This document shows, one piece after another, positions 6,636-12,730 of a stretch of DNA of 22,117 bases. The position numbers were made by a program, and so were the translations under genes. Each line of letters opens with the position of its first letter. Position 1 is the stretch's first letter. The notes below the pieces were generated by a model. It was not told where the DNA came from. It ran no database searches and was given only the letters and a program-made list of their open reading frames with translations. The stretch is from Candidatus Babeliales bacterium (GTDB lineage Bacteria > Babelota > Babeliae > Babelales > Vermiphilaceae), in NCBI GenBank assembly GCA_044451405.1, contig JBIOKB010000018.1, forward strand, positions 1 through 22,117, given 5' to 3'.

Positions 6636-6664
6636 AAGCGGTAGAAAATCTCTACCGCTTTTTT
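6636..6664 (+). terminator. Intrinsic terminator
   Basis: AAGCGGTAGA-aaatc-TCTACCGCTT followed by T-run. Confidence 0.85.
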
Positions 6665-6693
6665 ATTGTGTGTTTTTTATGAAAGGGAATCGT

Positions 6694-7014
6694 ATGAAAA
6701 AAATTTATGGTTTATTAGCAGCAGTGTTCATGAGTGTTGGGTGTGGTAGCATGCAGGCAATGAGTGCTGAAACTGGCAACAATCTTCTTTTGGGTGTTGC
6801 TACAGGGGGAATTGCACGACTCGCTTCCTATGCCCTTAAGGATCAAGGCGGCTCATCTAATAATCAAGCAATGATTGGTGCAGGATTTGTTGCAGGAGTG
6901 TGTATTTTAGCTGCGCAAACAAGAAATAGTGGCAGCTTTAATGGTGGAATGATTCAATTGGCGGCCGCACTAGGTACCTATGTAACAAGCATGTATGTGT
7001 TTAGAACAACATAA
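6694..7014 (+). CDS. Small Gly/Ala-rich exported/membrane hypothetical protein
   Basis: 106 aa from ATG 6694 (MKKIYGLLAAVF...), SD AAGGGA, signal peptide plus three hydrophobic stretches. Confidence 0.8.
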   Translation: MKKIYGLLAAVFMSVGCGSMQAMSAETGNNLLLGVATGGIARLASYALKDQGGSSNNQAMIGAGFVAGVCILAAQTRNSGSFNGGMIQLAAALGTYVTSMYVFRTT

Positions 7015-7044
7015 AAATATACATACATAAGAAGCTAAGATTAT

Positions 7045-7069
7045 ACGGCCAGATAACTCCTGGCCGTTT
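7045..7069 (+). terminator. Probable intrinsic terminator
   Basis: ACGGCCAG-ataactc-CTGGCCGT followed by a short T tract. Confidence 0.55.
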
Positions 7070-7081
7070 GCATTAATAATA

Positions 7082-7111
7082 TTGCATTACCTGCGACCTC
7101 ATTACTATAGT
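7082..7111 (+). promoter_or_regulatory. Putative sigma70 promoter
   Basis: TTGCAT-18 bp-TATAGT upstream of the 7152 gene. Confidence 0.45.
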
Positions 7112-7151
7112 TGCCACCAGTCAGTGTTATTTATCTAAAGAAGGAGTACGT

Positions 7152-7547
7152 ATGAAGATATCACAATTATTTATGGCGGGCGCAACTCTTGTAGCAGTGC
7201 ATTCAGCATATGCAGGCCTAGGCCAAGATGCAGTGTATGGTGTGGGCACAGGGGTCGTTTCATTAGGTGTATTTTATGGGGCGCAAGGCAGCTACTTTAA
7301 TGAAACAGAAGGTAGGGCGTTAGCCGCAGCGACGCTTGTAGGGGTAGTGCTTCCTGCATTTGCTCAAGCATATGATCGCGCGGGTGTCCTCAGTTATTTA
7401 ACTACATTGGCAGCAGCAGCCATTACCTTTGGGCTAGGAAAGCATATCTATGAAAATCAAGAATCGCTACTCGCCCAACTTCAGGGGTCACAACCAGGAG
7501 TAGCAGCCCAAGTAGGCACTTCAGCTCAGGTTGCGCCAGCTAATTAA
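7152..7547 (+). CDS. Small Gly/Ala-rich exported/membrane hypothetical protein
   Basis: 131 aa, signal peptide ending AYA, three hydrophobic stretches, SD AAGGAG. Confidence 0.85.
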   Translation: MKISQLFMAGATLVAVHSAYAGLGQDAVYGVGTGVVSLGVFYGAQGSYFNETEGRALAAATLVGVVLPAFAQAYDRAGVLSYLTTLAAAAITFGLGKHIYENQESLLAQLQGSQPGVAAQVGTSAQVAPAN

Positions 7548-7682: not shown

Positions 7683-7777
7683 AAAAAGCAATAAGTTCAA
7701 AGAAATTTATAGCATCTCAACGTATAACACTCTGTTATGCGTATCTTTCAAAAAAAGTACCCTATAAAAGGATTGCG

Positions 7778-8035
7778 ATGGCAACAAGTAAAACCGGCGG
7801 ATCGACACAGAATGGCCGTGATAGTCAAAGTAAACGTCTTGGTGTGAAATTATTTGATGGACAGGTAGTCACTGGCGGTGAAATCATTGTTCGTCAGCGC
7901 GGGACCCATATTAACCCAGGTAAGTTTGTTGGCAAGGGAGGCGATGATACTCTCTTTGTAATGGCGCCGGGCAAGATCAAATTCCATTATGGCATGAAGG
8001 GTCGCCGGTTCGTTTCTATAATCCAAAGTTCTTAA
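7778..8035 (+). CDS. rpmA: 50S ribosomal protein L27
   Basis: [28 protein letters not shown] and [10 protein letters not shown] motifs; 85 aa. Confidence 0.98.
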
Positions 8036-10978: not shown

Positions 10979-11010
10979 AAAAATCCCGGAAGAAATTCCG
11001 GGATTTTTTT
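10979..11010. terminator. Bidirectional intrinsic terminator between convergent rho and tsaD
   Basis: AAAAATCCCGGAA-gaaa-TTCCGGGATTTTT, with an A-run before and a T-run after. Confidence 0.9.
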
Positions 11011-12022
11011 ATTTTAAAATATCCAACGTTAAATCAGAAAACTCACCCTTGCGCGCTTTGTAGCCACCCACAAAAGCTATCATAGCGCCATTATCGGTGC
11101 AGTATTGTGGTGAGGGAGTAAAAAAGGCAAGCCCTTGATTAGCACACCAGGATTGTAGATTATTGCGTATATATTTATTACACGCTACACCGCCAACAAA
11201 TGATACTGCTTTAATCTGTGGATACTGTGCGTACGCTAAACTTAGTTTTTCTTTAAAAATATCAGAAATGCAGGCAAGCAATGAGCTTGAAACGTGTTGT
11301 TTTAACGTTTCACTGGTATCGAGTAATGTTTTGTTGCGCATATCGTATGCTCCCCGCTTAACCAGATTGTAGAGTACCGCAGTTTTAAGGCCAGAGAAGC
11401 TAAAATCTAATGTTTTTTTTGTTGAGCGCGGGTAGTTAAAAAAATCCTGAAATGCTACTTGCTGCGCTAACTTTTCAATGACCGGGCCACCAGGATAGGG
11501 AAGATTCAACAGCTTTGCTATTTTATCAAACGCTTCCCCTGCTGCATCATCAGCCGTATGGCCAATAAGATCATAGACCCCAAAATCATGTACCAGATAA
11601 AGTGCGGTATGTCCGCCGGACGCGGTTAAACAGAGAAAGGGGAATGGAATAGTATGTTCGATGTTTGCTGAAAATATGTGTCCCTCTAAATGATTAACCC
11701 CAATAAGTTTTTTCTGTTTAACCCACGCAACTGCTTTTGCAAAACAAACACCAATTAATAAAGAGCCAGGCAATCCCGGTTTATGGGTCACGGCAATAGC
11801 ATCAATAGTATCTAATGTTGCGCCTGCAGCTGCTAACGCTTCATCGATAATAACGCCAATTTTTTCTAGATGTGATCGGGAGGCAATTTCAGGTACCACG
11901 CCGCCATACTGCTTATGCATCTCAATTTGTGAAAATAATTTGTTAGAAAGCATACCGCGTGAGGTATCATAGACTGCTGCAGCAGTTTCATCACAGGATG
12001 TTTCAATGCCTAAAATTTTAAT
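11009..12022 (-). CDS. tsaD: tRNA N6-adenosine threonylcarbamoyltransferase TsaD; probable ATT start
   Basis: KILGIETSCDET lies in frame upstream of the tracked ATG; GGVVPEIASRSH, NHLEGH, SGGHT, DDAAGEAFDK, SFSGLKT, GGVACN, CTDNGAMIA; 337 aa from ATT 12022. Confidence 0.96.
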   Translation of the reverse strand: MKILGIETSCDETAAAVYDTSRGMLSNKLFSQIEMHKQYGGVVPEIASRSHLEKIGVIIDEALAAAGATLDTIDAIAVTHKPGLPGSLLIGVCFAKAVAWVKQKKLIGVNHLEGHIFSANIEHTIPFPFLCLTASGGHTALYLVHDFGVYDLIGHTADDAAGEAFDKIAKLLNLPYPGGPVIEKLAQQVAFQDFFNYPRSTKKTLDFSFSGLKTAVLYNLVKRGAYDMRNKTLLDTSETLKQHVSSSLLACISDIFKEKLSLAYAQYPQIKAVSFVGGVACNKYIRNNLQSWCANQGLAFFTPSPQYCTDNGAMIAFVGGYKARKGEFSDLTLDILK

Positions 12023-12037
12023 GGGGTTTCCTCGGGA

Positions 12038-12730
12038 TTATTTATTCATGGCGAGTACTGTTTTTTGCCCATGGTGCAGTTCTTGCTCTATGGTTGAATG
12101 GAGTGCATTTACATCTAATGATGCAAGCAGAAGCTCTATTGATTTTTCATGGAGAGAGTGCTCAGAGCCCACTAAATCAACCACGTTAGATTTTATGGTA
12201 ATGGTTGGCAAATCTATTGCGTTGCCTCCTGTAAGATCTTCGACCAAATTCGGATCATAACAGATAATGATTGCATCATCAGGAATGCGGCGATCGCTGC
12301 CGTGGCCAAAAAAGAGCTTATGAATTTCCCATCCATATGGAGATTGCCCTTTGTTTCCCTCTATCATCGCTTTTTTTACCAGGAGAATGCGGTACCATGT
12401 ATACGCTTGTTCTTGAGGAATGGTTAGATATTTAATGGTATTAAGTTCGTGTACTTTGTAGCTAATTTTTGGCGTGATAATAATGTCAAAATAAAAGCGC
12501 TGGCGATCACCAGGAATAGCAAATGACATATATTTATTGGTATTATGAGCCTCACATTTTATTTTATGGCCGCAGTGATACACACGCATGACGGGCAATT
12601 CTTCCAGATCGCGAGGAAATTGAATGCTTCCCATATACAACATATGCAGTGGTGTTGCTATAAGGGATAGGTGAGCGCATGCACATAAAATGGTTACAAA
12701 GACGACTTTGTTGAATGATTTTTTTATCAT
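12038..12730 (-). CDS. Hypothetical exported protein
   Basis: 230 aa from ATG 12730 (MIKKSFNKVVFVTILC...), SD AGGA, signal-peptide-like N-terminus; ends 15 bp before tsaD. Confidence 0.8.
   Translation of the reverse strand: MIKKSFNKVVFVTILCACAHLSLIATPLHMLYMGSIQFPRDLEELPVMRVYHCGHKIKCEAHNTNKYMSFAIPGDRQRFYFDIIITPKISYKVHELNTIKYLTIPQEQAYTWYRILLVKKAMIEGNKGQSPYGWEIHKLFFGHGSDRRIPDDAIIICYDPNLVEDLTGGNAIDLPTITIKSNVVDLVGSEHSLHEKSIELLLASLDVNALHSTIEQELHHGQKTVLAMNK

Follow-up and report, generated by a model that had tools for sequence, protein, structure and literature searches.

Initiation at AUU is rare but known in bacteria. In Escherichia coli, infC and pcnB are chromosomal genes that lack a canonical start and carry AUU at the Met1 position behind a Shine-Dalgarno sequence (SD), and the AUU of infC is widely conserved and forms part of a demonstrated autoregulatory loop. 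In Staphylococcus aureus, AUU at cvfC1 and AUA at ccpN and infC are non-canonical starts that gene finders had missed; they were mapped by retapamulin ribosome profiling, lie behind extended SDs and are expressed at ~10% of the AUG level (PMC13009471). Evolutionary switches from an ancestral AUG to a weaker start behind a better SD than that of relatives, mostly from AUG to GUG or UUG, are treated by Belinky, Rogozin and Koonin 2017 (PMC5622118), and pairs of co-directional genes with a close gap that are linked by termination and reinitiation are treated by Huber et al. 2023 (PMC10666635). Here we describe tsaD, a tRNA-modification gene of an uncultured Candidatus Babeliales bacterium, which appears to be translated from AUU. 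The gene lies on contig JBIOKB010000018.1 of GenBank assembly GCA_044451405.1, and all 22,117 nucleotides of this contig make up the window that was analyzed.

Comparison with these systems reveals both likenesses and differences. As with infC and pcnB of E. coli, tsaD is a chromosomal gene without a canonical start in which AUU stands at Met1 behind an SD, and its output is expected to be low. In contrast to E. coli infC, the ATT of tsaD is confined to a very small clade, and infC in the same genome begins with ATG. The S. aureus sites share with tsaD a start that gene finders overlook, whereas their extended SDs and profiling data contrast with a 4-nt GAGG and a start known from sequence alone. 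The locus also resembles the switches of Belinky, Rogozin and Koonin in that an ancestral AUG appears to have given way to a weaker start behind a better SD than in relatives, although those switches seldom lead to AUU and the compensation at tsaD is a single post-hoc case. Lastly, tsaD and its upstream neighbor form a co-directional pair with a close gap. The gap at tsaD is 15 nt and contains the SD, and in gene pairs tested in E. coli and Haloferax a 14-nt gap lowered reinitiation by 40-80% (PMC10666635). Literature searches found no report of an AUU start for tsaD; one of them returned only a paper on eukaryotic KEOPS. Thus tsaD is a further case of a rare but known type of start, and it reveals no new mechanism.

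The tsaD locus and its candidate start codon

The window is contig C18 of the source genome, hereafter G000, a metagenome-assembled genome (MAG) of 1,023,543 bases in 89 contigs (95.7% complete, 0.3% contamination) that is the sole representative of its genus among the genomes compared. Inspection of the minus strand at the 5' end of tsaD gives TAA (12040-12038) TCC CGA GGA AAC CCC ATT (12022-12020) AAA ATT TTA GGC ATT GAA ACA TCC TGT GAT GAA ACT, which translates to a stop followed by SRGNPIKILGIETSCDET. No ATG, GTG or TTG lies between the in-frame TAA and the conserved TsaD N-terminus, as an earlier, sequence-only reading of the window had claimed for the interval ending at ILGIETSCDET, and the earliest canonical in-frame codon is the ATG of Met24 (11953-11951). 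Translation from the ATT to the stop at 11011-11009 yields 337 residues, the length that this reading had given, and all of its coordinates proved correct. A stretch of 28 codons without a canonical start is not rare per se; its significance is that the conserved, structurally required N-terminus of TsaD falls inside it. ATT is a permitted start in NCBI translation table 11. On this sequence, the ATT at 12022 is the best candidate for the initiation codon of tsaD, and the second in-frame ATT, at 12016-12014, is less likely because its spacing from GAGG is worse (Table 1).

Table 1. Features around the 5' end of tsaD, in window coordinates.
Feature	Position	Strand	Remarks
Upstream co-directional open reading frame (ORF), at most 247 residues	12038..12781	-	matches neither Pfam nor NCBIfam; synteny with tsaD across the family
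TAA, stop of the upstream gene, in the tsaD frame	12038..12040	-	
SD-like GAGGA	12029..12033	-	only GAGG (12033-12030) complementary to the 3' tail of 16S rRNA; 7 nt from GAGG to ATT
Spacer of 15 nt between the upstream stop and ATT	12023..12037	-	little structure predicted around the start
ATT, proposed initiation codon of tsaD	12020..12022	-	Met1 position of solved TsaD structures; ATG in the 85-86% identical P0002 and P0003
Second in-frame ATT (codon 3), less likely alternative start	12014..12016	-	13 nt behind GAGG
Earliest canonical in-frame start, ATG (Met24)	11951..11953	-	314-residue product without GIETSCDET; no SD, duplex -2.2 kcal/mol
tsaD coding sequence from ATT, 337 codons plus stop	11009..12022	-	sole tsaD copy in the genome

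Profile and structure comparisons both identify the product as TsaD, the threonylcarbamoyltransferase for N6-threonylcarbamoyladenosine at tRNA position 37 (t6A37). The protein matches TIGR03723 (E 5e-115; 383.8 bits against a cut-off of 296.1) such that positions 1-312 of the 314 in the profile correspond to residues 3-322 numbered from the ATT, and it matches Pfam PF00814 with E 9e-90. Residues 2-333 of the ATT-started product align with residues 2-323 of the TsaD chains 3zet, 4wq5 and 4ydu (Salmonella, E. coli). Since residue 2 is paired with residue 2, the ATT occupies the Met1 position of these structures, and both this placement and the ATG of close relatives bear out the claim that ATT sits where Met is expected. 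Translation beginning at the ATT includes ILGIETSCDET; a product begun at Met24 would lose the segment that opens both the family profile and the crystal structures. The partner proteins TsaB (contig C10; 92.9 bits, cut-off 69.3), TsaE (contig C1; 93.2, cut-off 60.1) and TsaC/Sua5 (contig C5; TIGR00057, 130, cut-off 123.2) all exceed their curated cut-offs, and the genome has a single tsaD. Its t6A pathway therefore looks intact and dependent on this gene.

Close relatives and the spread of the ATT

Closest to the G000 protein are four sequences from a protein collection search, P0002 to P0005, each a singleton on its own Logan contig. P0002 and P0003 (86% and 85% identity to G000 TsaD) are 337 residues long and begin MKILGIETSCDETAAAVYDTSRG, which corresponds to IKILGIETSCDETAAAVYDTSRG in G000, so that the ATT of G000 stands in place of the ATG encoding their Met. 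The 22 residues that follow the start are identical in all three proteins, and the remainder of P0002 is 85% identical to G000. P0004 and P0005 (91% and 87% identity) are both called as 314 residues that begin MLSNKLF at Met24, exactly where a gene finder limited to ATG, GTG and TTG would begin the tsaD of G000, and they are the only two sequences cut at Met24 among the 120 hits listed. The open frame reaches the normal C-terminus in G000, P0004 and P0005. A maximum-likelihood tree unites G000 with P0002-P0005 (support 99/99) and, within this clade, pairs G000 with P0004 (99/96) and P0002 with P0003 (100/99). Because P0004 and P0005 come from independent assemblies and were both called from Met24, loss of the ATG is probably common to a small clade of G000, P0004 and perhaps P0005 and is probably not an assembly error. 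The apparent persistence of this state across 9-13% TsaD divergence, with the protein conserved and open, speaks against an assembly error and equally against a dead gene. An exact match to the 314-residue product of G000 was not found in the protein collection, and a protein fragment search for short N-terminal fragments of the clade returned nothing above 77% identity.

Outside this clade, tsaD begins conventionally. Of 54 tsaD loci from the family or order, 50 are distinct and have an intact 5' end (57-71% identity); the others are duplicates or are truncated at that end. Every one of the 50 carries a canonical start in its open frame, level with the ATT or ahead of it: 47 ATG, 2 TTG and 1 GTG. 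A tsaD lacking such a start was found at none of 134 distant bacterial loci (141 given, 7 skipped). By these two sets, the ATT is conserved in no more than a very small clade. Contig collections gave best tsaD matches of 69% (genomes) and 68% (metagenomes), and the 40 relatives together with 79 family genomes gave 71%; none of these matches falls in the clade of P0002-P0005.

Irregular tsaD genes of another kind appeared in the same searches. P0173 is a 116-residue 'hypothetical protein' from a complete 1.22-Mb Candidatus Dependentiae genome with 73% identity to the N-terminal region of TsaD, and tsaD may be split or truncated in the genome that encodes it. In three family genomes, tsaD matches with in-frame stops or in two pieces lie at G089:C1:71264-72268 (1 TAA), G081:C1:1016414-1017169 (1 TAA) and G083:C25:8390-9399 (2 TGA), and these may be broken copies or assembly errors.

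Initiation context and genome-wide survey

The 16S rRNA of G000 ends in GGAUCACCUCCUUUC. Where the sequence-only reading had placed an SD of GAGGA 6 nt before the ATT, an SD is indeed present, but GAGG alone pairs with the 16S tail and the fifth base does not. The GAGG falls within the G-rich peak at -11 to -7 that is seen over 453 G000 gene starts, and its duplex with the anti-SD is predicted at -5.9 kcal/mol, a value equaled or exceeded at 35% of these starts versus 12% of 2000 random positions. Only 4 of the 50 relatives have a tsaD SD this strong or stronger. The predicted pairing thus describes a real SD that is better than at most relatives' tsaD, yet ordinary to moderate for G000. Its strength fits compensation for a weak codon, although a single post-hoc case proves nothing; an association between 4-mer SDs and non-ATG starts (3/4 versus 5/41, Fisher p 0.014) is likewise post hoc, ignores relatedness and serves as a hint only. 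Folding predictions for -53 to +48 relative to the start give less structure than in shuffled sequences (z +1.79), 195 of 200 of which fold equally well or better. Weak structure is usual at initiation sites.

The upstream ORF matches no Pfam or NCBIfam family. Its conservation and synteny with tsaD extend over the family and order, with tblastn hits of 20-39% identity at 39 of the 48 loci given. Its N-terminus looks hydrophobic and signal-peptide-like by eye. The distance between the upstream stop and the start of tsaD is -4 to +15 nt in 33 of 40 usable relatives, so tight coupling is the design of the family. The same stop is out of the tsaD frame in 29 of the 40 and the relatives' tsaD genes have their own starts, and a read-through fusion is therefore not the family design.

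To place tsaD among the other genes of G000, its stop-to-stop ORFs were compared with those of the relative G009 (1.2 of 1.229 Mb), with antisense shadow ORFs filtered by overlap. The comparison covered 520 G000 genes with a homologue in G009 and a closed 5' end. Among protein genes, tsaD alone shows well-conserved aligned sequence 5' of its first canonical start: 24 residues align there, and 17 of them are identical. Further survey flags were rejected as missing starts: that on C40 lies inside a 16S rRNA gene, that on C19 marks where an overlapping upstream gene ends, that on C17 is a frame-split gene, and those on C11, C60, C6, C4 and C8 have merely 3-8 identical residues upstream. By this comparison, non-canonical starts are not widespread in G000 wherever at least 8 conserved residues would betray them.

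The assembly is not error-ridden, since only 1 of 488 genes tested against G009 is frame-split. This gene, which by eye is probably ribulose-phosphate 3-epimerase, occupies two frames at C17:~6650-7300 with the split at an A7 run near C17:6950, and it could be a true pseudogene, a slippery site or a homopolymer error. Two soil-metagenome runs holding small shares of the genome (0.10 and 0.09; no RNA run) were used to check base calls in the window, and their contigs match 12112-12269 and 12437-12585 without differences.

The initiator tRNA gene of G000 (anticodon CAU, contig C6) is standard by eye, with a C1xA72 mismatch and three G-C pairs in the anticodon stem. A tRNA(AAU) was considered as a special initiator for AUU and rejected; its gene neighbors one for a phage portal protein and had no counterpart in the 40 relatives searched. 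It is one of two unusual tRNA genes 170 nt apart at C3:34504-34577 and C3:34746-34818 (L257:7505-7578, 7748-7818), just upstream of a gene for a P22-like portal protein (PF16510, E 2e-73). The first scores 47.6 bits against the Rfam tRNA model, and its anticodon loop is 8 nt long and contains a run of A; the second scores 64.8 bits and combines the anticodon AAU, cognate to AUU, with A73 and an A1xA72 mismatch. A search of the 40 relatives recovered neither gene, and both are probably phage-borne. The aragorn list for G000 comprises 34 tRNA genes. Missing from it are Lys(UUU), Glu(UUC) and Arg(UCU), each present in G009; this gap most likely reflects the incompleteness of the 89-contig MAG.

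Readings of the proposed AUU start and their significance

Taken as a whole, the alignments and relatives suggest that tsaD is probably translated from the AUU at 12022-12020, through a tolerated and partly compensated ATG-to-ATT substitution shared by a small clade. An ancestral ATG would have become ATT by a G-to-T change at its third base, in a single event common to G000, P0004 and perhaps P0005 (87-91% TsaD identity), and purifying selection on tsaD would have been maintained since. We infer that the AUU is in fact used as the start. The ordinary initiator tRNA would pair with AUU at two of three bases and mismatch at the third, and initiation factor 3 (IF3) would disfavor such complexes by analogy with characterized cases. 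Initiation may be aided by the GAGG core at the distance usual for G000 and by ribosomes arriving from the upstream gene, whose stop is 15 nt away. TsaD output would then be a small fraction of the ATG level, which is probably tolerable for a low-copy enzyme. For scale, Hecht 2017, cited in PMC10666635, put E. coli AUU at ~0.3% of ATG output, and the S. aureus starts behind extended SDs reach ~10% (PMC13009471). Weaker start codons tend to accompany stronger SDs (PMC5622118).

Several points weigh against this account. An AUG-to-AUU switch was counted once among 61,358 ancestral AUG starts (PMC5622118), and the S. aureus AUU and AUA starts use extended SDs (PMC13009471) unlike the 4-nt GAGG, which itself is not unusually strong when 35% of G000 genes match or exceed it. 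Coupling across 15 nt may add little to initiation, judging by the gene pairs cited above. A shared ATT in P0004 and P0005 is deduced only from the length of the gene call, and P0005 takes no resolved position inside the five-sequence clade. In addition, the contigs of the two soil-metagenome runs leave 11972-12103 uncovered, and with it the ATT.

This last gap bears on whether the codon is a consensus or assembly error, with the true ATG miscalled as T at 12020 in a low-coverage MAG. The fragmentation of G000 into 89 contigs, the gene split at the A7 run, the lack of read support for 12020-12022, the rarity of genuine AUG-to-AUU switches (PMC5622118) and the canonical start in 50 of 50 relatives would all agree with an error. 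Yet the independent assemblies behind P0004 and P0005 give the same 314-residue call from Met24 while the ATG-bearing P0002 and P0003 are called at 337, only 1 of 488 genes looks frame-split, and a substitution error would need to strike one of ~3000 start-codon bases, so that we regard an error as distinctly unlikely. If the base is correct, tsaD might still not be properly expressed, either as a young pseudogene or as only the 314-residue product from ATG 11953, with t6A lost or impaired. The missing canonical start, a reduced genome of a kind where gene loss is common and the long open frame from the first canonical ATG are what such decay would leave. Against it, the 23 codons before Met24 are intact, the identity to P0002 is complete over the 22 residues after the start and 85% over the remainder, three members of the clade keep an open frame up to the normal C-terminus, and TsaB, TsaE and TsaC are intact; the ATG at 11953 also has no SD, and the shorter form lacks GIETSCDET, with which the family profile and solved structures begin. 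We therefore consider decay or the short product quite improbable. Production of TsaD by read-through of the TAA, as a fusion to the upstream protein, draws on the TAA being in the tsaD frame with no later stop before the TsaD N-terminus. The stop is TAA with no recoding signal seen, the frames and starts of relatives speak against it as described above, and no fused form occurs among protein hits of 185-590 residues. The sequence-only reading had already ranked read-through as less likely, and the frames of relatives bear this ranking out; such a fusion is extremely improbable.

A different possibility accepts AUU initiation and holds that the codon is a selected regulatory device, either a throttle by which TsaD synthesis would respond to IF3 level or initiation fidelity, or a feedback from t6A status. 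In E. coli and S. aureus, expression from AUU and AUA starts is reduced and depends on IF3 (PMC4705826, PMC13009471); the ATT state seems persistent across ~9-13% TsaD divergence, and the SD is stronger than at 46 of the 50 relatives' tsaD starts. The sequence-only reading had put forward a possible coupling of t6A synthesis to initiation fidelity, or its feedback regulation. This idea is not supported: according to the Asano 2014 review (PMC4705826), the bacterial fMet-tRNA is the only ANN-reading tRNA without t6A, and t6A status would therefore have no direct route to recognition of the AUU start. Its observation that the first three codons are all ANN is correct but carries little significance, as ANN occupies both codons 2 and 3 in 87 of 453 genes (19%) and every ATG is itself an ANN codon. 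No AUU-based IF3 circuit is evident in G000 either, because its infC starts with ATG, two codons after an in-frame stop. The trait is limited to a tiny clade, tsaD is the sole such gene of the 520 surveyed, and drift in a small-genome lineage, fixing a weakly deleterious change, would account for the persistence just as well. A selected device is thus unlikely, and so is its specific form, in which the AUU would be a maintained throttle in one genus-level clade of Dependentiae-like bacteria, tied to IF3 level and to a newly acquired SD. Were it true, tsaD would be a second infC-like housekeeping circuit, found in a reduced genome that has itself abandoned AUU at infC, and the t6A transferase would be kept scarce with its synthesis tied to initiation fidelity. 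A tolerated, partly compensated ATG-to-ATT substitution in a small-genome lineage remains the most likely account of the change.

A tolerated AUU start would have practical and biological consequences. Gene finders restricted to ATG, GTG and TTG trim TsaD to 314 residues without its N-terminal nucleotide-binding segment; this trimming at Met24 is seen in two public gene calls from close relatives and might be mistaken for the decay of a gene in a shrinking or reduced genome. With an AUU start, tsaD would join the short list of bacterial genes that apparently survive over evolutionary time on AUU, and does so as an essential tRNA-modification gene. The ATG-bearing P0002 and P0003 and the ATT-bearing G000 form a natural pair for asking how much TsaD a cell needs.

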